DNA of 64,000 bases, from assembly GCA_041657385.1 (NCBI GenBank), contig JBBABZ010000001.1:29821-93820 (forward strand), in the 5' to 3' direction. Below, one piece after another: positions 1-15,427 of the stretch. Source of the DNA: Minisyncoccota bacterium. GTDB taxonomy: Bacteria; Patescibacteriota; Minisyncoccia; Minisyncoccales; JAQTVQ01. Every line of letters begins with the position of its first letter. The stretch's first letter is position 1. Under the pieces are notes generated by a model. The model saw only the letters and a program-made list of their open reading frames with translations. It did not search any database and had not been told where the DNA came from. The translations under genes and the position numbers were made by a program.

Positions 1-14
1 TCAATGATATTGAG

Positions 15-1079
15 ATGCGCAAAGCTTTATCGCGCTTCGGAAACTCTTTGGACATCGTCCAGATCAAAAAGAAAATGAAGATCCATATCCATACCGATCT
101 GCCGGACGATGTGATCGCCGCCATAAAACAAAAAGGCCAAATTCTTACTTTGAGGACGGAAGATATGGCTAAAGAAATTGTCGGCGAGCCTTCGATAAAA
201 AAAGTTTCCATTGGATTGATCACCGATCCTCTCGCTAATTTAACCGATAAGATCATCGAACGCTACGATATAGAGATCGTCCAATACGTTTACGACTGGC
301 CGGAAGAAAATATGCTGCGAGGAGAAAATATCTATCAAAAAATGAGAGATGCCGCGAGCAAGGGAATAGCCAATCTGCCAAAAACTTCCCAGCCGAGCCC
401 CAAAGATTTTCTGGATGCTTTCAAGAAAAGGCTTAGCCAGGGATATAAAGAGGTCCTTTGTATTAATTTTTCTTCCAAGCTGTCCGGCGGATACAATTCC
501 GCCTGCCAGGCAAGGAACTTGCTCCCCGAAGAGCAAAAACAAAAAATCCATATATTCGACTCCCTTAATGCCGCCGCGGGCCAGGCTTTGATCGTTTTAA
601 AAGCCATTGAATTTATCCAAATGCAGAAAAATATAAAAGAAATTTTAATTGAGCTTAAAAAAGAATCCGATCGGGTCAAATTATACGGAATGCCCCAAGA
701 TCCGAAATGGCTGGAGTGGGGAGGCCGCATCAGCCACAGCCAAGCCCAATGGCTAAGGCGCCTTCAAAAGATCAGGGTTAACCCTTTGCTGGGGATCAAA
801 AATGGAAAAATAGAAAAGATAGGATTCAGCACCGGAACGAAAGAAATGTCCGAAGCCATTTTTAAAAAAATTCTTTCCGAAACTAAAAAACTTAGAAAAG
901 AGAACAAAAATATCCGAGTGGTCATCACTCATTGCGATAATCTGGAAGGAGCCCAAAAACTTAAAGAGATGCTAAGGCAGGAAAACTTCGAAGTTTCTTT
1001 CGTCAATTTGACCGACTCGATCATCGGAGTCCATGTGGGCCCGGGAGCATTGATAGCGGCATGGACGGAGATCGATTAA
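15..1079 (+). CDS. DegV family (FakB-like) fatty-acid-binding protein. The N-terminus runs to the window edge; the true start may be the internal ATG near position 75.
   Basis: C-terminal IIGVHVGPGALIAAWTEID and central LPKTSQPSP...FSSKLSGGYN blocks are typical of DegV. Paralogous to the ORF at 13873-14742. Confidence 0.7.
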   Translation: MRKALSRFGNSLDIVQIKKKMKIHIHTDLPDDVIAAIKQKGQILTLRTEDMAKEIVGEPSIKKVSIGLITDPLANLTDKIIERYDIEIVQYVYDWPEENMLRGENIYQKMRDAASKGIANLPKTSQPSPKDFLDAFKKRLSQGYKEVLCINFSSKLSGGYNSACQARNLLPEEQKQKIHIFDSLNAAAGQALIVLKAIEFIQMQKNIKEILIELKKESDRVKLYGMPQDPKWLEWGGRISHSQAQWLRRLQKIRVNPLLGIKNGKIEKIGFSTGTKEMSEAIFKKILSETKKLRKENKNIRVVITHCDNLEGAQKLKEMLRQENFEVSFVNLTDSIIGVHVGPGALIAAWTEID

Positions 1080-1113
1080 AAATCAAAAAATTGAAAATTA
1101 AAAATTCACACTT

Positions 1114-2235
1114 ATGTATATAAAAGGAGTAGGAATGACAAAATTCGATTACAGCCAAAAACCATGGTGGAAATTTGCCTATGAAGCGGCTTTGGAAGCG
1201 CTGGAAGATGCAAAGATGAGATCGTCCCAGCTTGATGCCATTGTTTTAAGCACTATTTCCAATGCAGGAGGCGGAGAGCATCAAACTCATAAAATTTCTT
1301 TGATCTCCGATCTATTCAAAACCCACGTCCCTATCATTGAAACTCCTTCCGTTTGCTCGGGCGGAGGAGTGGCCTTTTGGACGGCTAACCGGCTCGGCTT
1401 TAAAAACATTCTGGTTTTGAGCGGAGAAAAAGCGGTGGATAACCGCACTGAAATTACAACCGACCTGATCATGTCGGCCGCCGAACGCACAGTAGAACAA
1501 ACAGAGGGTATGATCTTTCCCGCGCAGAATGCCCTTATCTGGCAGAACTACATGAAAAAATACGGAGCCACAATGGACGATCTTTCCTTGATTGCTTACA
1601 AAAATCACCAAAATGCGGCCCTTAATCCCAAAGCTTATTACTATAAAAGAACGATGACCCTGGAAGATATTAAAAAATCTCCGGAAGTCGCTTCGCCCTT
1701 GCGCTTGATGGATTGCTCTATGTCGATCAACGGGGGAGCGGCCGTGGTCCTAACCCAGGAAAAAACCGAAGTGGAAGTGGCCGGCTCCGGTTTTGCCACC
1801 GATTATTTGCTTACTTTCGGCCGCGAAGAAACCGACCATTTTAAGGCTACGGAATTGGCAGCCAAGATCGCCTACGAACAAGCGGGCATTTCTCCAAAAG
1901 ATATTAATGTCGCCGAACTGCATGATGCTTTCACGCCGATAGAGCTTTTTTCCTACGAAGATCTGGGTTTCGCGCCAAGAGGCCATGGAGCCGAGCTTAT
2001 AAGATCCGGCAAGATAAATTTGGGAGGAGAGTTCCCGATCAATTCTTCCGGCGGATTAAAAGCCAAAGGCCATCCGATCTCGGTTACGGGCTTGGCGCAG
2101 ATCTACGAAATAACGAAACAGCTTCGAGGGCAGTGCGGCGAACGCCAAGCAAAAAACGCCAGCATCGGATTGTGCCAGAATATCGGCGGAGCGGGAGGAA
2201 GCATTACCGTGAATATTTTGAGAAAGGTTAAATAG
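1114..2235 (+). CDS. Thiolase-superfamily protein of SCP-x/archaeal type (acetyl-CoA C-acetyltransferase-like), the type that partners with DUF35 proteins
   Basis: Thiolase-like fold with a CSGGG nucleophile region, a C-terminal GHPISVTGL histidine motif and length near 370 aa. Lies next to a DUF35 gene. Confidence 0.7.
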   Translation: MYIKGVGMTKFDYSQKPWWKFAYEAALEALEDAKMRSSQLDAIVLSTISNAGGGEHQTHKISLISDLFKTHVPIIETPSVCSGGGVAFWTANRLGFKNILVLSGEKAVDNRTEITTDLIMSAAERTVEQTEGMIFPAQNALIWQNYMKKYGATMDDLSLIAYKNHQNAALNPKAYYYKRTMTLEDIKKSPEVASPLRLMDCSMSINGGAAVVLTQEKTEVEVAGSGFATDYLLTFGREETDHFKATELAAKIAYEQAGISPKDINVAELHDAFTPIELFSYEDLGFAPRGHGAELIRSGKINLGGEFPINSSGGLKAKGHPISVTGLAQIYEITKQLRGQCGERQAKNASIGLCQNIGGAGGSITVNILRKVK

Positions 2236-2740
2236 TTTTGAATCTAGAAAGAAGATCGTTGAAATATTTTTTGATCAAGGGGACGACCTCGATGACGCAA
2301 ACGCCTTTACCGGGCTGGCCGTAGACAACGGCCGTTCCTTCTTCGGATAAAAGCACGCAAGGAATGGCAAGCAAGTCTTCTTCCCCTTCAACAAAAACAT
2401 TTTTATTGAAAAAGACGGCTTCCTTGATAACCCCCCAAGCCTCTGACTGGATGGTTCCAGCCGGATTTTTTAGAAAAAGATCATAGCTTATATCTTCAGG
2501 TATCTTCATCCTCCGGGTCTTGCCGTCAAAAATTTTAACGTTGGAAGATAAATTCAAGGAGCAATAATCTCCGACCGTGATCACTTTCTTAAATTTTTTC
2601 CGCCAAGCAAGATGATTAAATTTTACCGCCACTTCTTTATCCGAACCGAAAACAGGCAAGCCAATAGGCTCTTGCAGCTCTCCCCTTAAAGAATCCGGCA
2701 AAATATATGTTTGAAAAAAAATAGGCATAGATATCGGCAA
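2228..2740 (-). CDS. DUF359/COG1909-like protein (resembles the archaeal GTP-dependent dephospho-CoA kinase family)
   Basis: Motifs VGDYCS, IFDGKTRR and VEGEEDLLAIPCVLLSEEGTAVVYGQPGKGV match the conserved blocks of DUF359. Length 170 aa. Confidence 0.5.
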   Translation of the reverse strand: MPISMPIFFQTYILPDSLRGELQEPIGLPVFGSDKEVAVKFNHLAWRKKFKKVITVGDYCSLNLSSNVKIFDGKTRRMKIPEDISYDLFLKNPAGTIQSEAWGVIKEAVFFNKNVFVEGEEDLLAIPCVLLSEEGTAVVYGQPGKGVCVIEVVPLIKKYFNDLLSRFKTI

Positions 2741-2791
2741 CAGATTAAAAATTACCCTGTTTAAAAAACAAAATCAATAGAAATTAAAAAT

Positions 2792-2809
2792 TGCCTGCCG
2801 GCAGGCAGG
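2792..2809. repeat. GC-rich palindrome TGCCTGCCGGCAGGCAGG (short copy of the CCTGCCTGCCGGCAGGCAGG family)
   Basis: Perfect inverted repeat read directly from the sequence, lying about 14 bp upstream of the ATG of the DUF35 gene. Confidence 0.8.
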
Positions 2810-2822
2810 AAAATTAAAGACT

Positions 2823-3854
2823 ATGTTTTATCAATGTCCGAAATGTAAAAAAACCTGGCAGCACCCGATCGAAAAATGTCCGGATTGTTTTGAGCTGTTG
2901 GAAAGGATGGCCAGCCAAAAAATCAAAGTCTCCGCTGTTTCCAAGATCAGCGTGCCTTCGCTGGCCCACCCGAAAATCCCTTATTTTACTTTGATCCTGG
3001 AAGACGAAGCGGGCAACAAATGGGCGCAAAAAAGCTTTAAAGAATATCAAGCAGGCCAAGAATTTTCTTATGCCTCTTCAAAAGACCCGAATGCCGTAGC
3101 GATCTGGCGGATTAAATACGACCTGCTGGAAGCCATTGAAAAGCTGGTTGATCTGCTTGGCGGGCTGGAGATAACACCCGAAACGAAAATATTGGTCCTT
3201 CCTGCTCTAAACGCTCCCAAACATTCTTATTTCGGCGAGAACACCACCCCGGAATTTTTAGAACAAACTATCCAATATTTAATAAGCCGCGGCGCTGGAA
3301 AAGAGAACATCCAGGTCGCCGGCCAAAGCTTCAACGATATTCCGATCGAAGCTTGCGCCCAAAAGTCCGGACTGCTCAAAGTCTGCTTGAAATACAATAT
3401 TGTTCCGCTTGATCTGGCAAAAAACGCTTTTACTAAAAAAAATGGCTTGGAAATCTCTGAAAATATTTTTTCAGCGGACTTGGCCATCAACCTTGCCGCG
3501 CTGAAGATCGGGCAGGCCTGCGCCTCCGAAAATCTGTTTAAGTTTTTGAAAAAAGAAAATTACCTGGGATTGAAATATCTTTACGGCCAAAAAGAAATTT
3601 TTGAAAAAATGGAAAGCGCCCTGCCTAAAATTCTGACCATAGCCGAGGCCGACCGGGTGCAAACTCCGGAAAAATTCATAAGCTTCCTGGGGCTAGCGCT
3701 GGCAGGGTCCAGCTCCCTTAATATAGATGCCGTTTTCAGCCAGCTCCGCCCGGCTAAAGCTTTGCCAGAAATCTTGTCGGATGTTAAAATCGGAGAGGTT
3801 ATAATTGTCGGACGCACAATTGAAGAAGCCCAATTTGATAACAAAAATATTTAA
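2823..3854 (+). CDS. DUF35 zinc-ribbon/OB-fold protein (thiolase/HMG-CoA-synthase scaffold family) fused to a C-terminal domain of about 230 aa with unknown function
   Basis: N-terminus [23 protein letters not shown] is a CxxC...CxxC zinc ribbon. It is followed by an OB-fold-like segment. The remaining 230 aa have no recognisable motif. Confidence 0.55.
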
Positions 3855-3870
3855 TGGTCAAACACAAATT

Positions 3871-4608
3871 ATGAAAAACAAAATTGTTTTGATAACCGGA
3901 GCGTCGCAGGGAATAGGCAAAGCGATCGCCCTGAAATTCGCAGCGCTTGGCGCGCAAATCGCGCTTAACGACATTCCCAGCCAGGAAGAAAATTTAAAGA
4001 CCGCCAAATCGGAAATAGAAAAGCTCGGAGCCAAAGCCGAATATTTTATGGCCGACGTTTCCAAATTCGATGAAGTGGAAAAAATGATGGCCGGCATTAA
4101 AGAAAAATTCGGAGGCCTGGATGTTCTGGTGAACAACGCCGGCATTGCCAAGGATAGGACATTAGCCAAAATGACCGTTGAAGAATGGCAAAAAGTGATT
4201 GATATTGATTTGACTAGCGTTTTTAATTGCTCCAAACTAGCTTTGCCAATGCTTGTCCCGAACCAAGGAAGCATAGTCAGTCTTTCTTCGGTAGTCGGGC
4301 AGGAAGGAAATTTCGGACAGACCAATTACTCCGCAGCCAAAGCTGGCATTATTGGATTCACTAAATCATTGGCCAAAGAAGTCGGAAGGTTCGGCGTCAG
4401 GGTCAATGCGGTTGCTCCCGGATTTATTGAAACAAAAATGGCTGAAGCCATTCCCGAACAATTGAAAGCTACCGTTAAGCAGCTGACCTCTTTAGGAAGG
4501 TTCGGCCGGCCCGAAGAAGTGGCCAGCGTAATTGCCTTTCTTGCTTCGCCGGATGCTAGCTTTGTGACTGGAGTGGTTCTGAACATTGATGGAGGGCTGG
4601 CGATTTAA
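3871..4608 (+). CDS. fabG: 3-oxoacyl-[ACP] reductase / short-chain dehydrogenase
   Basis: Contains the [12 protein letters not shown] Rossmann motif, NNAG, and the S...YSAAKAG catalytic triad region. Start taken at the ATG at 3871, just after the upstream stop. Confidence 0.85.
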
Positions 4609-4710
4609 GCGAAAAGCTAAAAGCGAAAAGTGTAAAATAAACGAACGAATATTTTACGCTTTGCACTTTTGTTTTGCACTTTTCGCTTTACCTGCCTGCC
4701 GGCAGGCAGG
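4609..4710. repeat. Intergenic palindromic element (GCGNAAAG-unit arms) ending in the 20-bp GC palindrome CCTGCCTGCCGGCAGGCAGG (4691-4710)
   Basis: Arms gcgaaaagctaaaagcgaaaagtgtaaaat / attttacgctttgcacttttgttttgcacttttcgcttta are inverted complements. The perfect GC palindrome is at 4691-4710. Confidence 0.8.
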
Positions 4711-4831
4711 CGCTTTCCAAAAATTTAAAGATTAAAATAATAAATAATAATTCCAAAAATCGAACAGCCAGTATCAAATAAATAAACAAAGGTTATTTGA
4801 CATTAGGATTTTGAAATTTGGATTTAAGCAA

Positions 4832-5812
4832 ATGTTAGTGATAAACCAAAAACAGGTCAAAAAACTTCTTCCTTTAAGCGATATTAAAATCGTAGTTAAA
4901 GCGGTAGAGAACGCTTTCGGCGATTATGGCCGCGAGCTGGTCCAGATGCCCTGCAAGCAATACCTTTATTTCACCGAAAATAACGGCGACTTAAGGGTCA
5001 TGCCTTCTTATTCTTCCGTCTTAAAAATGGCCGGAACAAAAATAGTCAATGTTCATCCAGACAATCCTAAAAAGGGCTTAGCCACTGTCATGGCCAGCAT
5101 TATTTTGAACGATCCGAAAAACGGCATGCCCGTAGCGATGATGGATGGAAGTTATATCACCGCCATGAGAACCGGCGCCGCCGGGGCTGTTGCGGCCAAA
5201 TACCTGGCCCGCGAAGACGCGGCCACTCTCGGAATAGTAGGAGCTGGCGTCCAAGCGATCTATCAAATAGCCGCCACTTCCAAAGTGCGCAAATTAAAAG
5301 ACATTGCTGTTTTCGATCCCAATAAAAAAGCTGCCGACAACCTGATCAAAATTTTAGCCAAAGAAGGGATAAAAGTCCGTGCCGCCGATAGCATCGAAGA
5401 AGCTTGCGGAATGGATATCGTCACCACAACCACTCCCGTTAGAAAACCGATCGTCAAAAAAGAATGGATCAAGCCGGGAGCCCACATCAACGCCATCGGA
5501 GCCGATGCCGAAGGCAAAGAAGAGATAGAAGCGGAAGCCTTGAAAGGAATGAAAATAATTATCGATGACTGGGCGCAGGCCAGCCACTCGGGAGAGATCA
5601 ATGTGCCTCTTAAACAAGGCGTTATAACCAAAGAAGATATTTGGGCCGGATTAGGAGATATAATTGCCGGGAAAAAACAAGGCAGAACCAACGCCGAAGA
5701 AATAACCATCTTTGATTCCACCGGTCTCGGGCTCCAAGATCTTTATACCGCCGTGGAAGTAATGAAGCTGGCCAAGAAAGAGGGAGTGGGAAAAGAAATA
5801 GAACTGATCTAA
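4832..5812 (+). CDS. Ornithine cyclodeaminase / mu-crystallin family NAD(P)-dependent enzyme
   Basis: Family-typical layout with a GIVGAGVQA Rossmann segment and overall similarity to the OCD/AlaDH(archaeal)/ketimine reductase family. The ATG at 4832 is preferred over the TTG at 4811. Confidence 0.6.
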   Translation: MLVINQKQVKKLLPLSDIKIVVKAVENAFGDYGRELVQMPCKQYLYFTENNGDLRVMPSYSSVLKMAGTKIVNVHPDNPKKGLATVMASIILNDPKNGMPVAMMDGSYITAMRTGAAGAVAAKYLAREDAATLGIVGAGVQAIYQIAATSKVRKLKDIAVFDPNKKAADNLIKILAKEGIKVRAADSIEEACGMDIVTTTTPVRKPIVKKEWIKPGAHINAIGADAEGKEEIEAEALKGMKIIIDDWAQASHSGEINVPLKQGVITKEDIWAGLGDIIAGKKQGRTNAEEITIFDSTGLGLQDLYTAVEVMKLAKKEGVGKEIELI

Positions 5813-5817
5813 TAACT

Positions 5818-5958: not shown

Positions 5959-5961
5959 TCT

Positions 5962-7461
5962 ATGTTATATTCCAAAGACCAAATCAAAAATATCATTCCC
6001 TATGATGACCCCTTCCTTTGGGTCGATGAGATCGAGAAGATCGAAGGCGATACAATTTTCGGTTCCAAGCAAACTTCTCCCCAAGATCCGTATTTCAAGG
6101 GTCATTTCGTTGATTTTCCGATCATGCCGGGCGTTTTGGTCGTAGAAGGGCTTGCCCAAACTGGAACTCTTTTACTTCGCGAAAGGCTTGGCAGCAGCCA
6201 CCAGCAAAAACATATCCTAGCCTATCAAGTAAGAAGCGCTATATTCTATTCGCCGATACTGCCCGGAGACAAGATCAAATACAAGGTCCGATTGCTCGGT
6301 ATATACGGCTCCAAGATCGCCAACTTCGTGGGAGAAGCTTATGTGGCAGATACTTTAAAATGCGAGCTTAGATTTTCAGCGGCCATTCTCGACAAAAAAG
6401 AGATGCAGGAAAAATTCCTGGCCGACAGAACAAATTCCCAGCCGGAAAAGAAAAAACTGTTCGAGCTTCCAGCGCTAAAAGTAGGAAGATTTACCGCAAA
6501 ATTACCGATCATCCAAGGAGGAATGGCTGTCCGCGTTTCCCTTCATAAACTGGCTGGCAATGTCGCCAAAGAAGGCGGGGTAGGAATAATCGCCGTTTCG
6601 GGAATGAAGGATCCGCAGGAAGTAAAAGATGAGATCAGAAAAGCGCGCGCAATTGCCGGAGAAAACGGAGCGATCGGCATCAATATAATGGGAGTTGTCG
6701 GACAATTCAAACAGCTGGTAACCGCGGCGGTTGAAGAAAAAGTCGACCTGATAATCCAGGGAGCGGGATTCCGCACGGACATTTTCGAAATGACCAGGGA
6801 AAGCTCCATCCCCGTTTTCGCCATGGCTTCATCAGCGAAAGTAGCTAAAAGGGCGGAAGAAGCTGGCGCATCGGCCGTTGTTGTTGAGGGTTGCGATGCC
6901 GGCGGCCACCTTGGATTCCCTCATGGACATCCTTTCCGTAAAACCATAGACATCATAAAGGAGGTCGTTAAAGAAGTGCGCATCCCCGTTATCGCCGCTG
7001 GAGGCATTTTTGATGGAAAGGATATTGTAGAAATGTTAAGAGCCGGAGCGAAAGGCATTCAAATGGCGACCCGATTCGTTTCGACCGAAGAATGCGATGC
7101 TGACATAAAATTCAAAGAAGCGCACATCAACGCAAAAAAAGAAGACATCGTTATCATCCATTCGCCAGTGGGCCTGCCCGGCCGAGCGATCAAAACCCCT
7201 TTTGTTGAAAAACTTTTGAAAGGAACTGCGCCCAAGCCCGACCCGATCGAGTGCCAAGGCTGTATAGGACCAGTTTGCGACAAAAGCTATTGCATCCTGA
7301 AAGTACTGGAAAACGCCCGGAAAGGAGACTTGGAAAACGGCCTGGTCTTTGCCGGAGCCAACGTTTGGAGAGTAAACAAAATGACAACGGTCAAAGCTTT
7401 AATAAAAGAACTGGTAGATGAAGCGAATGAAATACTGGCTAAGGAGCCGTTAATATCATAA
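5962..7461 (+). CDS. Fusion protein: N-terminal FabZ-like 3-hydroxyacyl-ACP dehydratase hotdog domain plus C-terminal FabK-like (NMO/nitronate monooxygenase TIM-barrel) enoyl reductase
   Basis: N-terminus PFLWVDEIEKIEGDT...GHFVDFPIMPGVLVVEGLAQ matches the FabZ/FabA signature including the catalytic His. From about residue 175 onward, LPIIQGGMAVRVS...GAGF...VVEGCDAGGHLG is FabK/NPD-like. Confidence 0.7.
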   Translation: MLYSKDQIKNIIPYDDPFLWVDEIEKIEGDTIFGSKQTSPQDPYFKGHFVDFPIMPGVLVVEGLAQTGTLLLRERLGSSHQQKHILAYQVRSAIFYSPILPGDKIKYKVRLLGIYGSKIANFVGEAYVADTLKCELRFSAAILDKKEMQEKFLADRTNSQPEKKKLFELPALKVGRFTAKLPIIQGGMAVRVSLHKLAGNVAKEGGVGIIAVSGMKDPQEVKDEIRKARAIAGENGAIGINIMGVVGQFKQLVTAAVEEKVDLIIQGAGFRTDIFEMTRESSIPVFAMASSAKVAKRAEEAGASAVVVEGCDAGGHLGFPHGHPFRKTIDIIKEVVKEVRIPVIAAGGIFDGKDIVEMLRAGAKGIQMATRFVSTEECDADIKFKEAHINAKKEDIVIIHSPVGLPGRAIKTPFVEKLLKGTAPKPDPIECQGCIGPVCDKSYCILKVLENARKGDLENGLVFAGANVWRVNKMTTVKALIKELVDEANEILAKEPLIS

Positions 7462-7571: not shown

Positions 7572-8510
7572 ATGTTTGAAACTAACAAACTGACACAACT
7601 TCTCGGCATTGAGTATCCCGTCATCCAAGGCGGTATGGCTGGCATTTCCGAATCAAAACTGGTTTCGGCTGTTTCCAATGCCGGAGGATTAGGCACCATT
7701 GGCGCAGGATTGATGCCGGCTTCTTGGGTGGAGCAGGAGATCCAAAAAACCCGCCAGCTGACTTCAAAACCTTTTGCCGTAAATCTTTTTATGCAAAACC
7801 AGAAGATTGAAGAAATAGTCAAAGCCATCATCAAAAATAAAGTTCCGATCGTCTTCATCGGAGGCGGCAATCCGATGCTGGTTATGCCTTATTTAAAAAG
7901 CGCGGGCATCAAAACGATCCCGGTCGTCCCTTCTCCCAGGCTTGCCAAAAAAATGGAAGAAAACGACGCCGACGCAATAGTTGTTGAAGGGGTAGAATCA
8001 GGAGGCCATCTTGGGCCCAACACCACTTTTTGCTTGATCCCGCAAACCGTAGAGCTGGTTAAAAAAATCCCGATTATTGCCGCCGGAGGCATTTTTGACG
8101 GACAAACCGCGGCGATGGCGATGGCTGCCGGAGCTGACGGCGTCCAAATAGGCACCCGCTTTTTGGCCACCCCTGAATGCATCATCTCCCAAAGCTATAA
8201 GCAAAAGATCGTCGACTCTTCAGCCGATGATATTGAAATTGTTCTGGCTTTTACCGGCCATCCCTTGCGCGTGATCAAAAACAAATGGGCCGAAGATATG
8301 AAAAAATTGGAAACAAAAAATGTTTTTCCCGAAGAGTTGAACGCGGGAAAGATCGCCGGATCCCTAGGAGGAGAAAATGTCGATAATATCCCTCTTTTAG
8401 CCGGGCTTTGCGCGGCCAGCATTAAAGATATAAAATCTTGCCAAGCGATCATTGAAGAGATCGCCAGCTCTTTAAAAAAATATGAACAAAGCCGTATCAA
8501 CGATCTGTAA
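7572..8510 (+). CDS. fabK: Enoyl-[ACP] reductase II / nitronate monooxygenase family
   Basis: YPVIQGGMAGISESKLVSAVSNAGGLGTIGAG and VEGVESGGHLG motifs. The first ATG is at 7572. Confidence 0.7.
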   Translation: MFETNKLTQLLGIEYPVIQGGMAGISESKLVSAVSNAGGLGTIGAGLMPASWVEQEIQKTRQLTSKPFAVNLFMQNQKIEEIVKAIIKNKVPIVFIGGGNPMLVMPYLKSAGIKTIPVVPSPRLAKKMEENDADAIVVEGVESGGHLGPNTTFCLIPQTVELVKKIPIIAAGGIFDGQTAAMAMAAGADGVQIGTRFLATPECIISQSYKQKIVDSSADDIEIVLAFTGHPLRVIKNKWAEDMKKLETKNVFPEELNAGKIAGSLGGENVDNIPLLAGLCAASIKDIKSCQAIIEEIASSLKKYEQSRINDL

Positions 8511-9135
8511 AGTATTGCTCAAACCCCTGATCGACCAATTGTTCATTAAAAAAGTGAATGGATTGGAAAATCTGCCAAAAAGTAATTTCATTTTAGCCGC
8601 AAATCACCAAAGCAATTTGGACCATGTGATCATCGGATCGTTTTGCGTGCCAAGAAGTTTCAAATTCATAGGCCAGGTGGATGGGCACAAGGGAATAAGT
8701 AAATTACTGGTTGATTTATTTTACGGTTTTTTCGGAGTTATTCCCTTAGACCGGGGCGACAGCGGATCTAAAAAATCGGCTATTAAAAAAGCTGTAGAAT
8801 CTTTAAAAAAAGGCTACATCATTGGAATTTATCCAGAAGGCACTCGTACTCGCAGCGGCGAATTGGGAGAAGCTAAGCCTGGCGTGGCTAAAATATTTTT
8901 GGGAAGCGGCGCGCCGATCGTTCCAATAGCGATCAAAGGAACTTTCGAATTATTCCCTCCTCACGGAAAATTGAAAATAAAACGCATAGTGGAAGTCGAG
9001 ATCGGCCGGCCTATTTATTTTAAAAAAGAATTCAAAGCCGCTCAAAATTTGTCTTACCAGTCAGAAAAATATAAAAAACTTTGCCAAGGGATATCCGATA
9101 AAGTAATGGTAAAAATTTCCGATCTGATAAAATAA
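8482..9135 (+). CDS. plsC: 1-acyl-sn-glycerol-3-phosphate acyltransferase
   Basis: HX4D motif (NHQSNLD) and the YPEGTRTRSG block are typical of LPLAT/PlsC. Overlaps the upstream gene by 29 nt. Confidence 0.7.
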   Translation: MNKAVSTICKVLLKPLIDQLFIKKVNGLENLPKSNFILAANHQSNLDHVIIGSFCVPRSFKFIGQVDGHKGISKLLVDLFYGFFGVIPLDRGDSGSKKSAIKKAVESLKKGYIIGIYPEGTRTRSGELGEAKPGVAKIFLGSGAPIVPIAIKGTFELFPPHGKLKIKRIVEVEIGRPIYFKKEFKAAQNLSYQSEKYKKLCQGISDKVMVKISDLIK

Positions 9136-9140
9136 TAGAT

Positions 9141-10676
9141 ATGCCAAAAATAAAAAAAATATTGATCGCCAACAGGGGAGAGGTGGCCCTGCGGGTCATC
9201 CGAACCTGCAAAGAGATGGGGATCAAAACGGTCGCCCTTTGCCCGATGCCGGGCCAGGAAAAATTCTTTTTGGAAACAAAATTAGCCGATGAATATCGAT
9301 TTTTAAATAAAGAAGGGGCTCAAGGCTATCTAGATGCCAAAAAAATCGTCGAAATAGCGAAAGAGGCAGAAGCCGACGCTATCCATCCGGGCTATGGCTT
9401 CCTTTCCGAAAATTGGAAATTCGCCGAACTTTGCCAAAAAAATAAGATCACCTTCATTGGGCCCAGTCCGGCAATTTTGAAAATTTTTGAGGATAAGATC
9501 AAGGCTAAAAAATTCGCCAAGCTTGCGGGCCTGCCCACCTTGCCGGCCAGCGCCGGGTCTGTCAAAACCCAAAAAGATCTTATGAAATGGGCGGAAAAGA
9601 TCGGCTCTCCTTTTGTTCTCAAAGCCCAGCGCGGCGGCGGGGGGATCGGCATAAGAATTATTGATGGAAAAATCACAGTGAACCAAATCTCCGAGATCTC
9701 TTCCGATATCCAAAGACAGATGTCGGTTTCTTTTGCTGACGCCGATTTCTTTTTGGAAAAATATCTGACCGAAGCCAAGCATATTGAATTTCAAATTCTA
9801 GGCGACGGAAAAAATTTCGTCCATCTGGGAGAAAGGGAATGCACCATCCAAAGAAGATTTCAAAAATTGCTGGAGGAAGCCCCGTCTTCTTTTCTTGATG
9901 AAAAATTAAGGAATAAAATGGGAAGCTTGGCGGTCGGCCTCGCCAAAAAATTAGGATATAAGGGCGCCGCCACGGTGGAATTTTTGATAGATAAAAACAA
10001 AAATTTTTATTTTATGGAGGTCAATCCGCGGCTTCAAGTAGAGCACCCGATCACCGAAGCCATTACCGGAGTTGATATCGTAGCCCAGCAGATAAAGATC
10101 AGCCAAGGCGAAGAGCTGGATTTCAAGCAAAAAGATATCCGCTTGAACGGCTGGGCTATAGAGGCCAGGATCAACGCCGAAGATCCCCAAAAAAAATTCC
10201 AGCCCGGGCCGGGCACGGTGCAAAAATACCTGCCGCCGGGAGGCCAGGGAATTTTTATGCATACCTTTTTGCAGCAAGGCCAGAAGATATATCCTCATTT
10301 TGACTCAATGCTGGCCAAGCTGATCGCCTGCGGCAAAACCCGCCAAGAGGCTATTTCCAGGCTCAACCGCGCCTTGGACGAATTGGTCATAGAAGGAGTA
10401 CCCACTACCGCTTCGTTCTTTAAAATCGTCCTCGCGGACAAATGTTTTCTAGGGGGAGATTTTTTTACTAATTTTATTGAACGGGAAGAGATCGTTCAAA
10501 AACTTGCCGAAGGGCCGGCCCAGATCATCTGCGATTCTTGCGACCTAGACGAAGAAGACATCGCCCAGATCATTTTTCAGGTTTATCAAAAAATGAAAAA
10601 AGAAAAAAAGACCGGATCACCGCAAAAAATTTCCAACTGGATCTTGTCCCAAAGGCTGAAAATGCTGGACAATTAG
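9141..10676 (+). CDS. accC: Biotin carboxylase subunit of acetyl-CoA carboxylase
   Basis: N-terminus KKILIANRGEVALRVIRTC, the ATP-grasp glycine loop QRGGGGIGIRI, and EVNPRLQVEHPITE. Confidence 0.9.
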   Translation: MPKIKKILIANRGEVALRVIRTCKEMGIKTVALCPMPGQEKFFLETKLADEYRFLNKEGAQGYLDAKKIVEIAKEAEADAIHPGYGFLSENWKFAELCQKNKITFIGPSPAILKIFEDKIKAKKFAKLAGLPTLPASAGSVKTQKDLMKWAEKIGSPFVLKAQRGGGGIGIRIIDGKITVNQISEISSDIQRQMSVSFADADFFLEKYLTEAKHIEFQILGDGKNFVHLGERECTIQRRFQKLLEEAPSSFLDEKLRNKMGSLAVGLAKKLGYKGAATVEFLIDKNKNFYFMEVNPRLQVEHPITEAITGVDIVAQQIKISQGEELDFKQKDIRLNGWAIEARINAEDPQKKFQPGPGTVQKYLPPGGQGIFMHTFLQQGQKIYPHFDSMLAKLIACGKTRQEAISRLNRALDELVIEGVPTTASFFKIVLADKCFLGGDFFTNFIEREEIVQKLAEGPAQIICDSCDLDEEDIAQIIFQVYQKMKKEKKTGSPQKISNWILSQRLKMLDN

Positions 10677-11120
10677 CTAAATCAAATGTCAAATCTCAAA
10701 AGTCAAAACCACAGCTTAAATCCTAAAAACGAACTAAAATTTCGCCGTTATCGCTTTTCCATTGATATTATCAATGCCAGCAAAGATTTCCCGAAAGAAC
10801 GGACATTTGATATTATCGCCAAACAGTTGCTAAGAAGTTCTACCAGTATAGGCGCGAATATTGTTGAGGTAAAATCTTCAAGCTCCCGCAGGGATTTTAT
10901 TAAATTTTATGAAATCGCTCTAAAATCCGCTAATGAAACAAAATATTGGCTTGGACTTTTAAGAGATGGTTTGAATTTTGACGGAGAAAAAATAAATATA
11001 TTCTTGGCTGAAGACGATGAGATATCAAAAATGATCGCCGCGAGCCTAATCACATTAAAAGGTAAAAGGCTTTAATCTATATGGTTTTGAGATTTGACTT
11101 TTGAGTTTTGAAATAAGCTT
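10676..11120. mobile_element. MITE-like element: inverted terminal repeats built from TCAAA(A/T)CTCAAAAGTCAAAACC subunits, carrying a four-helix-bundle gene
   Basis: Left arm tcaaatgtcaaatctcaaaagtcaaaaccaca (about 10683-10714) and right arm ggttttgagatttgacttttgagttttgaa (about 11081-11110) are inverted copies. An empty copy lies at 12185-12318. Confidence 0.5.
10686..11075 (+). CDS. Four-helix-bundle protein (23S rRNA intervening-sequence protein family, TIGR02436-like)
   Basis: Family blocks FPKERTFDIIAKQLLRSSTSIGANIVE and ALKSANETKYWLGLL. The ATG and first 17 or so codons lie inside the repeat arm. Confidence 0.55.
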   Translation: MSNLKSQNHSLNPKNELKFRRYRFSIDIINASKDFPKERTFDIIAKQLLRSSTSIGANIVEVKSSSSRRDFIKFYEIALKSANETKYWLGLLRDGLNFDGEKINIFLAEDDEISKMIAASLITLKGKRL

Positions 11121-11495
11121 ATGAAAATAAAGATCAAAGATAAAATTTACGATATTGAGATTTCCGAATCGCAAGAGGGGATCGTTATGATCAAGGTTAA
11201 TGATCAAAATTTTGTTTTCCAAGAAAAAAACACTGTTAAAAATATACCGATCAAAGGGTCTAATGAAAGCGCGAAAATAGCTAAAAAAGAAATTAGGGCG
11301 CCGATAACGGGAACTATTTCCAAAATTTTTACCAAAGAAGGAGAGATGATCGAACCGGGACAGAAAATTTTAAGCCTTTCGGCCATGAAAATGGAAAACG
11401 AAATAATTTCCGAAGGCAAAGGCAAGATTAAAAAAATCAATGTAAAGGAAGGGCAGCTGGTAAAGGCGAATGAGCTGCTGGCAGAACTTGAATAA
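11121..11495 (+). CDS. accB: Biotin carboxyl carrier protein (biotinyl/lipoyl domain)
   Basis: C-terminal EGEMIEPGQKILSLSAMKMENEI with the AMKM biotinylation motif. Confidence 0.75.
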   Translation: MKIKIKDKIYDIEISESQEGIVMIKVNDQNFVFQEKNTVKNIPIKGSNESAKIAKKEIRAPITGTISKIFTKEGEMIEPGQKILSLSAMKMENEIISEGKGKIKKINVKEGQLVKANELLAELE

Positions 11496-11529
11496 CTGCG
11501 TAAATTTTCAATTTACAATTCTCAATTTT

Positions 11530-11549
11530 CCTGCCTACCGGCAGGCAGG
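11530..11549. repeat. GC palindrome CCTGCCTACCGGCAGGCAGG (one mismatch), flanked by inverted AT-rich arms (aattttcaatttacaatt / gaaattgaaaattgtaaatt)
   Basis: Read directly from the sequence. The flanking arms at about 11497-11529 and 11606-11640 are inverted copies. Confidence 0.75.
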
Positions 11550-11652
11550 CAATGAATGTTTCAATTTTCAAAAATTCCGTTATCGTCATTGAAGCATTGG
11601 AACATTGTAATTTCATTGGAAATTGAAAATTGTAAATTAAAAATTCACGCTT

Positions 11653-12183
11653 ATGATCATAAAATCATTCTCTCAGCTAGATTCTACCAACACCAAGGCC
11701 AAAGAGCTCGCCCAAAACGGCGCCGCGCCTTGGACTGTTGTCATTGCCGATGAACAAACCAACGGTTATGGCAAAGACCAGCGCGGCTGGTTTTCTCCAA
11801 AAGGCGGCCTTTATTTTTCCATCATCCTTCCTGAAAGCAATATCGACGACCTTCAAACGCTAACCATTTTAGCGGCTTTTGCAGCGGCAAAAACAATAAT
11901 GGAAGAATTCAATTTGCAAACTTTTATCAAGCTGCCGAACGATGTCTGGACGAACAATAAAAAAATAGCGGGCATCCTGACCGAAAACATCATTTCCGGA
12001 AAAAAAATAAAACATTCGGTCATGGGCATAGGCCTCGATACCAATATTGAAAAATTCCCAAAAGAGTTGGCAAGTATCGCCACTTCGCTTAGAATAGAGC
12101 TAGGCAGGGAAGTGGACGATAAAGACCTAATGGAAAAGATAGTAGGAGAACTTAAAAAACAGTTAGAGACGATAAGCAGATAA
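11653..12183 (+). CDS. birA: Biotin-[acetyl-CoA-carboxylase] ligase, catalytic domain only
   Basis: GYGKDQRGWFSPKGGLYFS matches the BirA GRGRxGRxWxSPxGxLYxS signature. No HTH domain is present. Confidence 0.75.
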   Translation: MIIKSFSQLDSTNTKAKELAQNGAAPWTVVIADEQTNGYGKDQRGWFSPKGGLYFSIILPESNIDDLQTLTILAAFAAAKTIMEEFNLQTFIKLPNDVWTNNKKIAGILTENIISGKKIKHSVMGIGLDTNIEKFPKELASIATSLRIELGREVDDKDLMEKIVGELKKQLETISR

Positions 12184-12184
12184 A

Positions 12185-12318
12185 TGGCTCAAAAATCAAA
12201 TCTCAAAATTCAAAACCACAACTAAAAACCAAAAAGCTAAGCGTTATTTAATAAATTATAAAAAGTTAAAAAGTTTTAAATTATAGTTTTGAGCTTTGAC
12301 TTTTAAGTTTTGAATTAG
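12185..12318. repeat. Empty copy of the TCAAATCTCAAAA(G/T)TCAAAACC inverted-repeat (MITE-like) element
   Basis: Left arm tcaaatctcaaaattcaaaaccacaact, right arm agttttgagctttgacttttaagttttgaa, about 60 bp of AT-rich filler between them. Confidence 0.55.
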
Positions 12319-12324
12319 AATACT

Positions 12325-13863
12325 ATGTCTTTTGAAAAACAGATCAAAAAACTAAATGAGGAGATCGCGGCGCTCGACAGTCCGGAGATGGCTGCCAAAC
12401 AGCACCAAAAAGGAAAGCTGACGGCGCGGGAAAGGATCGGCATCCTCTTAGACAAAGATAGTTTCGTTGAACTTAATCCATTCGTCCAATCCCGCTTCAA
12501 TGATTATGGAATGGACCAAAAAAAATTTCCAGGAGACGCGGTGGTCTCCGGTTTTGGCAAGATCAACGGACGGCAAGTCTGCGTCTACAGCCAGGACTTT
12601 TCTAAAATCGGCGGTTCTTTGGGAGAAATGCACGGCCAAAAAATAATTAACGCCATAAAAATGGCCAGGCAAACCGGCTGCCCGACGATCGGGATCATCG
12701 ACAGCGGAGGCGCCCGCATCCAAGAAGGAATAGCCAGCCTTGACGGCTATGCCGGAATTTTCAGGGAGATGGTCAAGGCTTCCGGCATTATTCCTCAAAT
12801 TTCAATTATCCTGGGCCCTTCAGCCGGCGGAGCTTCTTACGCCCCCGGACTTTCCGACTTTATTTTTATGGTTGAAGGAATTTCTCAAATGTATATCACC
12901 GGGCCGGAAGTGATAAAATCCGTAACCGGGGAAAATATTTCTTTTAATGATCTTGGCGGAGCTTCAGTCCACTCTTTGCAAAGCGGATGCGCCCATTTCG
13001 TCTCCCAAAATGAAAACGAATGTTTGGAAGGCGTTAAAAAACTTTTGGGTTATCTGCCGCAAAATAATTTGGAAAATCCTCCGGCTAAAAACTCTTTCGG
13101 CACGGCCGATCTCTGTCCTAAACTCCTGGAAATAGTACCGGAAGAAGAAGGGAAGGGATACGACATGAAAGAAGTGGTTAAGGAAATTTTCGATCTTGAT
13201 TCTTTTTTTGAAGTCCAAGCCGGATTCGCCCCCAACTCTATTGCCGGCTTTGCCCGCTTAGGAGGGCAAACCGTCGGCATCGCGGCCAATCAGACCAAAT
13301 CAATGGCCGGAACCCTGGACGTCAATTCTTCGGATAAGATCGCTAGATTTGTCCGGCTTTGCGATGCTTTTAACATCCCCATCATCAATTTGATCGATAC
13401 CCCCGGATATCTTCCCGGCACCGACCAGGAGCACAAAGGCATTATCCGGCACGGCGCTAAAATCCTGTATGCTTATGCCGAAGCCAGCGTTCCCAAGATC
13501 AGTCTTATTTTAAGAAAAGCCTTCGGCGGAGCCTATATCGCCCTGGCTTCCAAAGAGCTGGGATATGACAAAGTCATTGCCTGGCCTTCCGCCCAGATCG
13601 GAGTGATGGGTCCGAAACAAGCGGTAAAAATAATTTTCCACAGAGAATTGGAAAACAGCCAGGACCCGGACAGGCTTGAAAAAGAAAAAATCCTCGAACT
13701 GTCCGAAACTTTTTTGAGCCCGTGGCAAGCGGCCCGGCTAGGAAAATTAGATTTGATCATCGATCCCCAAGAAACCCGGTCCGTATTATTCAAACTGCTG
13801 GAATCCCTGCTCAACAAACGCGAAAGCAAAGCCCCTAGAAAGCACGGTAATATTCCTCTATAA
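12325..13863 (+). CDS. Acyl-CoA carboxylase carboxyltransferase subunit (fused AccD/AccA-type, PccB-like)
   Basis: 512 aa. Family blocks DSGGARIQEG, the GPSAGGASY oxyanion region, and AFGGAYIAL in the second half. Confidence 0.85.
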   Translation: MSFEKQIKKLNEEIAALDSPEMAAKQHQKGKLTARERIGILLDKDSFVELNPFVQSRFNDYGMDQKKFPGDAVVSGFGKINGRQVCVYSQDFSKIGGSLGEMHGQKIINAIKMARQTGCPTIGIIDSGGARIQEGIASLDGYAGIFREMVKASGIIPQISIILGPSAGGASYAPGLSDFIFMVEGISQMYITGPEVIKSVTGENISFNDLGGASVHSLQSGCAHFVSQNENECLEGVKKLLGYLPQNNLENPPAKNSFGTADLCPKLLEIVPEEEGKGYDMKEVVKEIFDLDSFFEVQAGFAPNSIAGFARLGGQTVGIAANQTKSMAGTLDVNSSDKIARFVRLCDAFNIPIINLIDTPGYLPGTDQEHKGIIRHGAKILYAYAEASVPKISLILRKAFGGAYIALASKELGYDKVIAWPSAQIGVMGPKQAVKIIFHRELENSQDPDRLEKEKILELSETFLSPWQAARLGKLDLIIDPQETRSVLFKLLESLLNKRESKAPRKHGNIPL

Positions 13864-13872
13864 TATCAATAT

Positions 13873-14742
13873 ATGACAAAGATCAGCCTTATTGTCGGCC
13901 AAAGCGCTTCTCTGCCAAAACAAATAATGGAAAGATATTCTCTGACCATGATCCCTTTTATTGTTGATTGGAAAGCCGATAAGGATAACCTTGACCCGAA
14001 AAGCATTTTTCAAAAAATGGCCGATGCCGAAGCTGGCAATGCAAGCGATCTTCCTAAAACATCCCATCCCGCGCCATGGCTCTTCAAGAAATTTTTTGAA
14101 GAAAAAATTACAAATTCCGATTCGGTTCTTTTTATTTCTCTAAGCTCGAAGCTGTCAGCCACTTCCGAGGCCGCCTCATTTGGAAAAGAAATGCTGAAAC
14201 CGGGAGATAAAAAAAAGGTTTTTATTTTCGATTGCCAAAATGCCAGCGCCGGAGAAGGCTTGATCGCAATTAAAGTTGCGGAGCTGATCAGTCAAGGCAG
14301 GCCGGTTGAGGAGGCTGTTAAAGAGCTGGAAATATTCAGACAAAAAGTCTGCACCTTGGCCAGCCTTAAAGATTTGAAATGGCTGGAAAAAGGAGGAAGG
14401 ATAAGCCATTTAACCAAATCAATATTATCCACTTTCCAAAAACTAGGGATCAGCCTTCTTTTCGGGATTAAAAACGGCCGCGTTGAAGCTGTTAGCTTGG
14501 GTTTTAAACAAAAAACTCAAGCCGCGGTTATTTTCGATTTTTTCAAAAAAAACTGCAAAAAGGGGAAATTCCGAATTGCCATAGCTCACGCTCAAAACGA
14601 GCAGGCCGCAGACGAACTTAAAAATTTGATCCAAAAAAAATGTCCCTCATCTGAAATAATTTTCACCGGGCCGATCGATAATATTATTGGAATACATGTC
14701 GGACCAGGCGCCCTGATTTGCGCCTGGCATCCGCTAGACTAA
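13873..14742 (+). CDS. DegV family (FakB-like) fatty-acid-binding protein
   Basis: C-terminal IIGIHVGPGALICAW, internal DLPKTSHP and FISLSSKLSATS blocks. Paralog of the ORF at 15-1079. Confidence 0.8.
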   Translation: MTKISLIVGQSASLPKQIMERYSLTMIPFIVDWKADKDNLDPKSIFQKMADAEAGNASDLPKTSHPAPWLFKKFFEEKITNSDSVLFISLSSKLSATSEAASFGKEMLKPGDKKKVFIFDCQNASAGEGLIAIKVAELISQGRPVEEAVKELEIFRQKVCTLASLKDLKWLEKGGRISHLTKSILSTFQKLGISLLFGIKNGRVEAVSLGFKQKTQAAVIFDFFKKNCKKGKFRIAIAHAQNEQAADELKNLIQKKCPSSEIIFTGPIDNIIGIHVGPGALICAWHPLD

Positions 14743-14746
14743 TACA

Positions 14747-15427
14747 ATGCCCGCTTCTTATTTTTTAATATCCCTTTTCTCTTACCTGCTCGGTTCAATA
14801 CCGGCCGCTATTTTAATTGGAAAACTTTTCACCAAGAAAAATTTTCAAGAAGAGGGAAGCGGCAATCTTGGCGCCACCAACGCTTTAAGAATCGTCAGCA
14901 AAGAAAAAGGGAAATTCTGGGGAACCGCGGCCTTTCTTGCCGTTTTTCTTTTTGACGCCAGCAAAGCAGTGGCCGCTTGTTTGATCGCAACGAACTTTAT
15001 TCCCGATCGGACCGCAGCTTTAACTCTGGCCGCCTTTTTTACCGTTCTTGGCCATAATTATTCATTGTTTTTAAAATTCCGGGGAGGGAGGGGAGCTGCT
15101 TCCTTGCTTGGCGTCCTCTTATTTTTCGATTGGCGCGTCTTTTTAGCTTGGGTTGGAACTTTTTTGGCCGTAGCCGTTATCTTTGAGGCTGTTGAAAGCA
15201 AAAAAATCGACAAAAAAATAGTGGCCAGAGCCGCTAACCGCCAAATTATCGGCCGTCTTGTTGGAGAGGTCTTAGCCCTTATTCCCATCTACCTTCTCAA
15301 TCAAACTCTTTTTTGGCCAACCCTTTTCGCTACGCCATTGATCCTTATCAAACATAAAGAAAGGGTGAAAAGACAGTTGCAAGAGATAGCTGAAAGCGTA
15401 AAGCTAAAAGCGCAAAGCGTAAAGTAA
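14747..15427 (+). CDS. plsY: Glycerol-3-phosphate acyltransferase
   Basis: LLGSIPAAILIGK and GSGNLGATNALR motifs. Polytopic membrane protein. The C-terminal tail of about 25 aa reads into the repeat element. Confidence 0.8.
   Translation: MPASYFLISLFSYLLGSIPAAILIGKLFTKKNFQEEGSGNLGATNALRIVSKEKGKFWGTAAFLAVFLFDASKAVAACLIATNFIPDRTAALTLAAFFTVLGHNYSLFLKFRGGRGAASLLGVLLFFDWRVFLAWVGTFLAVAVIFEAVESKKIDKKIVARAANRQIIGRLVGEVLALIPIYLLNQTLFWPTLFATPLILIKHKERVKRQLQEIAESVKLKAQSVK

Follow-up and report, generated by a model that had tools for sequence, protein, structure and literature searches.

The stretch of DNA analysed here (the window) comprises 64,000 nt from a Minisyncoccota bacterium (contig JBBABZ010000001.1, positions 29,821 to 93,820), and its beginning, positions 1–15427, carries a lipid gene cluster in which an archaeal-type thiolase and a DUF35 protein stand among homologues of the enzymes of type II fatty acid synthesis in bacteria (FAS-II). 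Using six-frame open reading frame (ORF) calling and Pfam and NCBIfam scans, we observed a near-continuous array of genes on the same strand, separated by gaps of −29 to 223 nt; of the 64 ORFs of at least 70 aa in the window, 59 were included in the Pfam scans. Scanning for consensus promoters and terminators gave nothing informative on the operon boundaries. A protein identical to one of the window is labelled “Candidatus Paceibacterota” at NCBI, in agreement with a preliminary description of this region, made from its letters, which had placed the host in the Candidate Phyla Radiation (CPR). Three genes are central to what follows: the thiolase, a candidate condensing enzyme (1114–2235, + strand; Pfam Thiolase_C_1, 8.7e-43), a DUF35-DUF362 fusion of 343 aa (2823–3854, +) and a 3-ketoacyl reductase of the FabG-type short-chain dehydrogenase/reductase (SDR) family (3871–4608, +).

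The thiolase is the sole gene of the thiolase superfamily and of the archaeal/SCP2 type, as previously described, with its catalytic motifs intact: Cys81 (SVCSGG), His270 (HDAF) and His320 (KGHPIS). Its nearest solved structures are 7yvy, named “acetyl-CoA acetyltransferase” (1e-64), 6esq (5e-49), which is the Methanothermococcus (M.) thermolithotrophicus thiolase of a complex with 3-hydroxy-3-methylglutaryl-CoA (HMG-CoA) synthase and DUF35, and the benzoylsuccinyl-CoA thiolase BbsB (5e-47), followed by SCP2-type thiolases; a DUF35 partner is known for at least 6esq and BbsB. The best NCBIfam models are PRK06064 and AcCoTHIOL_METTL. Compared with 120 CPR orthologues, the window thiolase displays 72–93% identity; all 120 share the HDAF and KAKGHPIS (GHP) motifs without change, and the motif of the nucleophile Cys could be located in 101 of them. 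The family is sharply separate, as full-length matches among 1.8 billion cluster representatives drop to 53%, 48% and then at most 43% identity. It is also the most conserved protein of the cluster, with 65–86% identity in other species versus 43–70% for the DUF35-DUF362 protein.

At the position of the acid/base Cys of the SCP2-thiolase HDCF motif, all 120 CPR orthologues harbor an Ala. We considered HDAF as a mark of a decarboxylative thiolase and dropped it: among the 150 nearest 50%-identity representatives, ~130 of which have a recognisable motif, 51 carry HDAF and 64 HDCF, Njordarchaeia (Asgard archaea) thiolases are among the sequences with HDAF, and a recent paper gives the archaeal thiolase motif as HDxF. 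Being common outside the CPR, HDAF is thus not diagnostic and only compatible with a decarboxylative enzyme. The nearest named relatives outside the CPR, at 36–40% identity, belong to Asgard archaea (Njordarchaeia/Korarchaeota) and to Negativicutes, most of the nearest clusters bearing no name. With the two named nearest clusters falling in these two groups, an archaeal origin could not be called, and the term “archaeal-style” used in the preliminary description holds for the type of family and not for its origin.

The product of the neighboring 343-aa gene is a fusion of a DUF35 domain of true DUF35 fold to a DUF362 (LarA-like) domain. Pfam detects DUF362 only, and the DUF35 part was recognized by fold comparison: residues 1–100 (~2823–3122) form a zinc ribbon with four Cys followed by an OB-like barrel, and residues ~120–340 (~3180–3842) form a LarA-like alpha/beta domain. 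Pfam DUF35 models gave no match to the isolated N-terminal 110 residues, even at E = 10, and the N-terminal family profile, run against PDB sequences, has 6esq_E as its top match with an E value of only 0.096, so that the assignment rests on the fold. The family has four invariant Cys (C5, C8, C19 and C22), and its 454 homologues with an organism name all belong to Parcubacteria-type CPR, some being labelled “OB-fold protein” by JGI. The eggNOG assignment of the orthologue from Minisyncoccus archaeiphilus includes COG1545, which we take to be the DUF35 COG. The fold comparison thus bears out the earlier mention of a DUF35 protein beside the thiolase, which had overlooked the larger DUF362 domain of the same protein.

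The FabG-type reductase (adh_short_C2, 9e-72; TIGR01830, 292 bits for a cut-off of 298) retains its catalytic residues Ser140, Tyr153 and Lys157. By comparison with the E. coli FabG sequence, the positions of Arg129 and Arg172 are replaced in 32 of 38 and 38 of 38 CPR sequences, respectively. We take these two Arg to be ACP-docking residues (ACP, acyl carrier protein), in which case their loss would be a weak supporting detail for activity on CoA esters. In the same comparison, the position of Arg15, presumably the residue that binds the 2′-phosphate of NADPH, is a Gln in 32 of 38 CPR sequences, a hint that these reductases may use NADH over NADPH. Further along the array are a FabZ-like dehydratase fused to a divergent FabK/NMO-like FMN domain (5962–7461, +; FabA 6e-19, NMO 1e-54; FabZ and FabK NCBIfam matches below cut-off), whose FabZ domain keeps the HFxxxPxxPGVLxxE motif with His48 and Glu62, and a separate FabK-type FMN-dependent enoyl reductase (7572–8510, +; NMO 5.3e-68; TIGR03151, 314 bits for a cut-off of 453). 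In the related locus L007, FabZ is encoded as a stand-alone gene. FabG, FabZ and the enoyl reductase of bacterial FAS-II are therefore all present, with their catalytic motifs kept.

These genes are followed by a PlsC-type 1-acylglycerol-3-phosphate acyltransferase (8482–9135, +; PF01553, 1.1e-26; HX4D motif HQSNLD) and by an acyl-CoA carboxylase set, consisting of a biotin carboxylase subunit (BC; 9141–10676, +; CPSase_L_D2, Biotin_carb_N and Biotin_carb_C), a biotin carboxyl carrier protein (BCCP; 11121–11495, +; Biotin_lipoyl 3.3e-16; AMKM biotinylation motif at residue 88), a biotin-protein ligase BirA reduced to its catalytic domain (11653–12183, +; BPL_LplA_LipB 2e-21) and a single-chain carboxyltransferase of the PccB/MmdA type (CT; 12325–13863, +; Carboxyl_trans 1.8e-175; TIGR01117, 699 bits). 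The array ends with a stand-alone DegV/FakB fatty-acid-binding protein (13873–14742, +; DegV 6.1e-53) and the acyl-phosphate:glycerol-3-phosphate acyltransferase PlsY (14747–15427, +; G3P_acyltransf 5.3e-37; TIGR00023, 110 bits). At its other end, the first ORF (3–1079, +; DegV 3.2e-53, FakA-like_M 2.5e-10) runs off the edge of the window and corresponds to the 3′ portion of a gene for a fatty acid kinase in a single chain, with a fragment of the FakA middle domain at its N-terminus, followed by DegV. The full gene, found in L001, a contig of the same organism (8173–9966), encodes a 597-aa Dak2, FakA-like_M and DegV fusion. Note that a genuine DegV/FakB domain (DegV 3e-53 versus FakA-like_C 4e-5) replaces, in this fusion, the C-terminal domain normally found in FakA. 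The parts of a Fak-PlsY pathway are thus present, the Dak2, FakA_M and DegV fusion in L001 and DegV and PlsY in the window. PlsX was found neither in the window nor among the families shown from 148 flanking and interspersed ORFs of related loci; the FakA-DegV fusion, as an acyl-phosphate source, would explain how PlsY operates without it.

Between the thiolase and the DUF35-DUF362 genes, on the opposite strand, lies a DUF359 gene (2228–2740, −; PF04019, 2.5e-26), convergent with the thiolase gene with an overlap of 8 nt. GTP-dependent dephospho-CoA kinase is the archaeal enzyme for the last step of CoA synthesis, and the DUF359 protein is assigned to it at the family level by its sequence, as the preliminary description had it; its best NCBIfam match is deph_CoA_kin_Thcocales (NF041125; 2.7e-22, 79 bits for an equivalog cut-off of 300).

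We then surveyed the synteny of the cluster by scanning one genome per GTDB species with an alignment of the DUF35-DUF362 family, which gave 44 loci (L009–L052). Nearly all are labelled as Patescibacteria (Paceibacteria, Nealsonbacteria or Minisyncoccales), some only as “bacterium” and one as Humimicrobiaceae. Two of the genomes are closed and a third is assembled to chromosome level (0.65–0.69 Mb), and the closed genome CP179892.1 was reached separately. Cluster-bearing genomes include CP179887.1, CP179889.1, CP179892.1 and OZ246399.1. From tblastn, the recurring order is Fak fusion, thiolase, DUF359 (reverse), DUF35-DUF362, FabG, FabZ(-FabK), FabK, PlsC, BC, BCCP, BirA, CT, (PlsY), and the presence of the same order in 44 species indicates that the arrangement is not due to chance. 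Counting only the loci with enough flanking sequence, the thiolase is present in 34 of 35 and FabG directly 3′ of the DUF35 gene in 32 of 32, the adjacency of thiolase, DUF35 and FabG being stricter than any other in the cluster. FabZ (27/31), FabK (21/26), PlsC (21/26), BC (20/25), CT (18/24) and DUF359 at the same position (24/35) are also frequent, the carboxylase genes BC, BCCP, BirA and CT being in the operon in ~75–80% of loci, and the FakA-DegV fusion lies 5′ of the thiolase in 19 of 28, across many CPR species.

Among the 148 flanking and interspersed ORFs of these loci, the commonest families are BioY (18), CarS-like/CTP_transf_1 (CdsA; 12), a mechanosensitive-channel first-helix domain (9), PHP (9), CDP-alcohol phosphatidyltransferase (8), UppS (7), a B12-binding radical SAM protein with DUF4070 (7) and cyclopropane-fatty-acyl synthase (3; best E value 3.6e-90). 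With BioY, CdsA/CarS-like, CDP-alcohol transferase and cyclopropane-fatty-acyl synthase genes as neighbors, the region is part of a conserved membrane-lipid island and not of a mevalonate or beta-oxidation cluster. This neighborhood bears on a reading unrelated to membranes, in which the genes would encode a fermentative, butyrate-like electron sink, leading from acetyl-CoA to butyryl-CoA with re-oxidation of NADH, or a hydroxyacyl storage route. These bacteria are anaerobic fermenters, a hydrogenase lies just 5′ of the cluster in M. archaeiphilus, and a thiolase and an acetoacetyl-CoA reductase catalyze the first steps of polyhydroxybutyrate synthesis, the FabG family also scoring well against the acetoacetyl-CoA reductase models of NCBIfam. 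We nevertheless regard this reading as very improbable, since the operon is shared with PlsC, PlsY, Fak, CdsA-like, CDP-alcohol transferase and cyclopropane-fatty-acyl synthase genes and with an ATP-consuming carboxylase, and since the flanks examined showed neither a polyhydroxyalkanoate synthase nor a CoA transferase or butyrate kinase.

The enzymes expected around the FAS-II homologues were also searched for. In the 59 window ORFs scanned, Pfam reveals no ketoacyl-synt, ACP_syn_III or Acyl_transf_1 domain, no ACP and no phosphopantetheinyl transferase. With tblastn, E. coli and B. subtilis ACP queries, run against the window and eight related loci, gave no match to E = 10, and E. coli AcpP, FabH, FabF, FabD and AcpS queries gave none to E = 1 in 770 kb (the window and related loci), apart from weak matches of FabF to the thiolase. 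Likewise, no ketoacyl-ACP synthase (KAS), ACP, FabD, AcpS or HMG-CoA synthase is among the families shown from the 148 flanking ORFs. The absence of KAS, FabD and ACP noted in the preliminary description thus extends, together with that of AcpS, from the 64-kb window to 46 related loci.

Two independent genome-wide reports on relatives point in the same direction. In a screen of 675 CPR genomes, some Nealsonbacteria were found to have a near-complete FAS-II with PlsY and PlsC, without AcpS, FabD and PlsX, and the authors raised both an ACP-independent route and the question of the acyl-phosphate source (Probst et al., PMC7242380). In the complete genome of M. archaeiphilus, AccC, FabK, FabG and a FabA-like protein are listed, with no complete FAS, and their role in fatty acid supply was called unclear (Nakajima et al., PMC12281837). 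The supplementary table of this study places a thiolase (MNSC_05910) and a DUF362 protein (MNSC_05920) directly 5′ of the FAS genes, and the composition of MNSC_05910–05970 indicates that M. archaeiphilus has the same cluster; the part of its annotation table up to about MNSC_05950 has no KAS, malonyl or phosphopantetheine entry. Both reports therefore concern the same cluster in the same bacterial group, and neither mentions the thiolase (in the main text), the DUF35 nature of the DUF362 protein, the Fak fusion or the conservation of the cluster. Our literature search found no paper tying Patescibacteria to a thiolase or DUF35. As the ACP-independent idea was raised in 2020 for the same CPR group, the reading is less new than the preliminary description implied, and our interpretation is partly anticipated. 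FAS-II fragments lacking the ACP machinery in relatives were already known; new here are the recognition of the condensing module, of a DUF35 domain missed by Pfam together with its LarA-like fusion partner and of the fatty acid kinase, and the breadth of conservation.

These searches weigh on the possibility of an ordinary ACP-dependent FAS-II, with ACP, AcpS, FabD, FabH and FabF located elsewhere or too divergent, and with the thiolase and DUF35 serving another purpose, e.g., acetoacetyl-CoA for isoprenoids. The part of the genome of the window's organism that was covered amounts to ~74 kb (the window and a 10-kb upstream flank in L001), FabG, FabZ and FabK score best against ACP-dependent NCBIfam families, DUF35/thiolase pairs serve mevalonate, benzylsuccinate, steroid side chain and Friedel-Crafts acylation pathways, and isoprenoid genes adjoin the cluster in L007. 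However, the two published reports describe relatives without the ACP machinery, no KAS, ACP or FabD occurs in the 770 kb around 46 cluster copies, and no HMG_CoA_synt domain was found in three Pfam-annotated contexts (L001, L006 and L007) nor among the families shared by at least 3 of the 148 flanking ORFs; in addition, it is with FabG that the thiolase and DUF35 genes keep the strictest adjacency in the cluster. Overall, we consider an ACP-dependent pathway decidedly unlikely.

A characterized counterpart exists in archaea. In Sulfolobus acidocaldarius, the ketothiolase Saci_1121 and DUF35 protein Saci_1120 form a complex with the FabG-like NADPH-dependent reductase ACR (Saci_1104) and the MaoC dehydratase (Saci_1085), and this complex, together with the enoyl-CoA reductase Saci_1115 of the MDR type (medium-chain dehydrogenase/reductase), produces acyl-CoAs out of acetyl-CoA with neither ACP nor malonyl-CoA (Schmerling et al., 10.1101/2024.07.05.601840). 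CoA-based synthesis by a thiolase-DUF35 pair, which the preliminary description cited as a proposal for archaea, has thus since been demonstrated in Sulfolobus. As for the use of malonyl-CoA, the sole Sulfolobus enzyme assayed for it, the stand-alone beta-oxidation thiolase Saci_1114, proved not to accept it. The two systems share an archaeal-type thiolase and a DUF35 partner beside an SDR FabG homologue, an (R)-dehydratase of hotdog fold and a distinct enoyl reductase, and no ACP was found in the loci examined here; CoA esters are used in Sulfolobus and would be the substrates here. The CPR cluster differs by the fusion of DUF35 to a DUF362/LarA-like domain, by a FabZ-type dehydratase in place of MaoC, by flavin-dependent FabK-type reductases (two copies, one fused to FabZ) in place of MDR, by an acyl-CoA carboxylase and BirA in the operon, whereas the Sulfolobus pathway is non-decarboxylative, and by a bacterial host in which the cluster is tied to PlsC, PlsY and Fak. 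Compared with the M. thermolithotrophicus thiolase/HMG-CoA synthase/DUF35 complex (6esq/6et9), it has fatty acid and phospholipid genes as neighbors, no HMG-CoA synthase in the contexts and flanks examined, and HDAF instead of HDCF. With respect to bacterial FAS-II and Fak-PlsY systems, it shares FabG, FabZ and FabK homologues as well as PlsY and PlsC with a Fak-dependent use of exogenous fatty acids, and it departs from them by a three-protein BC/BCCP/PccB-type carboxylase instead of AccABCD, by a thiolase as the candidate condensing enzyme, and by the lack, in the sequences searched, of ACP, AcpS, FabD, FabH/FabF and PlsX.

From this comparison, we favor, at somewhat better than an even chance, a chimeric pathway akin to the Sulfolobus thiolase/DUF35 synthase, in which fatty acids would be synthesized or elongated on CoA and which would feed PlsC, with Fak-PlsY handling free fatty acids. 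We infer the specificity for CoA, the formation of a complex, the direction of flux and the role of the carboxylase along the following lines. The thiolase, bound to the DUF35-DUF362 protein through the DUF35 domain of the latter, would condense an acyl-CoA with a C2 unit; the adjacent FabG-type SDR would reduce the 3-ketoacyl-CoA, the FabZ domain would dehydrate the (R)-3-hydroxyacyl-CoA, and the FabK-type flavoenzyme(s) would reduce the enoyl-CoA, this irreversible step and the formation of a complex pulling the unfavorable thiolase condensation forward. PlsC would consume the acyl-CoA, which would couple the cycle directly to phospholipid assembly. Scavenged or released free fatty acids would bind to DegV and, once phosphorylated by the FakA-DegV fusion, serve as substrates of PlsY. 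The DUF359 kinase would supply CoA, and the biotin carboxylase set, served by BirA and, in relatives, also by BioY, would make malonyl-CoA or another carboxy-acyl-CoA for the cycle. The hybrid CoA-based synthesis suggested in the preliminary description is upheld as regards the type of thiolase, the DUF35 fold, the synteny of the triad, the Sulfolobus precedent and the lack of AcpS, FabD and PlsX in relatives; the activity of FabG, FabZ and FabK on CoA esters, the use of malonyl-CoA by a thiolase and an absence of ACP and KAS from the genome as a whole are its presumptive parts.

Several points weigh against this CoA-based pathway. FabG, FabZ and FabK classically act on ACP-bound substrates, and activity on CoA esters is a presumption here; every NCBIfam score of the cluster genes is below its equivalog cut-off; ACP, AcpS, KAS and FabD could lie elsewhere in the genome of the window's organism; and some species keep only the thiolase, DUF35-DUF362 and FabG genes together (e.g., L016 and L048). 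The weakest link is the entry of the carboxylase product into the cycle: the linked carboxylase consumes ATP and has no role in the sole characterized thiolase/DUF35 synthase, which is non-decarboxylative, and, to our knowledge, no thiolase condenses malonyl-CoA efficiently. The strict linkage of the carboxylase nevertheless implies that some carboxy-acyl-CoA is needed, for which the thiolase is the sole candidate consumer.

A more specific version of the pathway, possible yet doubtful in our view, would take this linkage at face value: the thiolase would be a decarboxylative condensing enzyme acting on malonyl-CoA from the co-operonic carboxylase, with its Cys-His-His active site devoid of the HDCF acid/base Cys, and the DUF35-DUF362 protein would be a CPR-specific scaffold or an extra catalytic subunit, assembling the thiolase, FabG and FabZ-FabK into a soluble CoA-based synthase. 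If true, this would constitute a third route to fatty acids, besides ACP-dependent FAS and the non-decarboxylative archaeal complex, and a large branch of the supposedly lipid-auxotrophic CPR would make its own acyl chains.

The same genes could also serve scavenging and remodeling only, with thiolase, FabG, FabZ and FabK elongating or adjusting imported short or medium acyl chains and no de novo synthesis. The chemistry would be identical to that of the CoA-based cycle proposed above, so that sequence alone cannot separate the two. Uptake of host fatty acids or lysolipids fits with DegV/Fak, PlsY and PlsC, the cluster comprising three DegV domains and a fatty acid kinase; CPR generally count as dependent on the lipids of their hosts and show an enrichment in lysolipids (PMC7242380); and M. 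archaeiphilus also has a long-chain acyl-CoA synthetase (PMC12281837). On the other hand, the operon retains all parts of a carboxylase along with BirA and BioY, and a thiolase can in principle start from acetyl-CoA, with no limit on the length of the primer. We therefore hold a restriction to scavenged chains to be unlikely, and retain the CoA-based synthesis or elongation pathway as the preferred reading.

CPR/Patescibacteria, the group of this tiny bacterium that depends on a host, account for much of the diversity of bacteria and are usually portrayed as incapable of producing membrane lipids, and the source of their fatty acids is an explicit open question in both reports (PMC7242380; PMC12281837). 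In the proposed scheme, the thiolase and the hidden DUF35 domain would supply the missing condensing step and the Fak fusion the missing acyl-phosphate source, so that an “incomplete pathway” would become a complete and testable one. The presence of bacterial FAS-II enzymes beside an enzyme pair whose best-known examples are archaeal bears on the debates on ACP-independent synthesis and on the lipid divide. M. archaeiphilus, a cultured organism with the same cluster, makes isotope labelling and enzyme reconstitution feasible.

The preliminary list of genes agrees in content with the Pfam and NCBIfam scans, with the corrections that its first DegV gene is the tail of the FakA-DegV fusion and that two genes had been missed. 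One belongs to the ornithine cyclodeaminase/mu-crystallin family and is of the archaeal, alanine-dehydrogenase-like type (4832–5812, +; PF02423, 2.4e-97; TIGR02371, 402 bits for a cut-off of 409). It occurs at varying positions inside the cluster in L010, L014, L022, L025, L031, L044 and L046; L006 and L007 lack it. Its product could provide reductant or reduce another imine or keto acid. The other encodes a protein of the 23S rRNA intervening-sequence (23S-rRNA-IVP) family (10686–11075, +; PF05635, 8.6e-23), located between the biotin carboxylase and BCCP genes. It was seen only in the loci of the window's organism (L001–L005) and in no other species, and is probably a lineage-specific insert outside the pathway.

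Other variations were observed among the relatives. In seven species, a gene of ~500 codons for a B12-binding radical SAM/DUF4070 protein lies directly 5′ of the DUF35-DUF362 gene (L017, 7774–9261; L018, 3852–5378; L036, 2237–3760; L043, 8486–9994; L045, 8311–9807; L048, 8477–9994; L049, 899–2413), the thiolase being farther 5′ where the contig reaches (at least in L017, L043 and L048); this protein could modify acyl chains, e.g., by methylation. Archaeal-lipid-like genes adjoin the cluster in some relatives (L007, 18588–21038 and 2880–3437; L008, 10148–12598; L006, 6961–7521), and comprise geranylgeranyl-reductase-like, polyprenyl synthase, PcrB/GGGP-synthase family and CarS-like CDP-archaeol synthase family genes. 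Locus L048 (DATKUR010000013.1) comes from a metagenome-assembled genome labelled Candidatus Humimicrobiaceae and harbors the Fak fusion, thiolase, DUF359, DUF35-DUF362 and FabG genes, with products 52–72% identical to those of the window; this front part of the cluster reflects either a binning error or a transfer.

The remainder of the window is of housekeeping nature, with PNPase, the rnpA-yidC/dnaA-dnaN origin region, PBP1, RuvABC, a two-component system and type-IV-like pilin and ATPase genes. In the chromosomal origin region (36304–41058), jag, yidC and rnpA (−) face dnaA and dnaN (+), and the cumulative GC skew has its minimum at 38–40 kb of the window, the lipid cluster being located ~23 kb from the origin. 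Type-IV-secretion-like genes lie 3′ of the lipid cluster (15756–16163, 28156–29142 and 33328–36186), encoding T4SS_pilin/TrbC pilins, a PrgI-family protein and a TraG/VirB4-like ATPase. Near the end of the window, an Elp3-like protein (62013–63614, −) combines radical SAM, Radical_SAM_C and GNAT acetyltransferase domains; Elp3 is an enzyme characteristic of archaea and eukaryotes that few bacteria possess.

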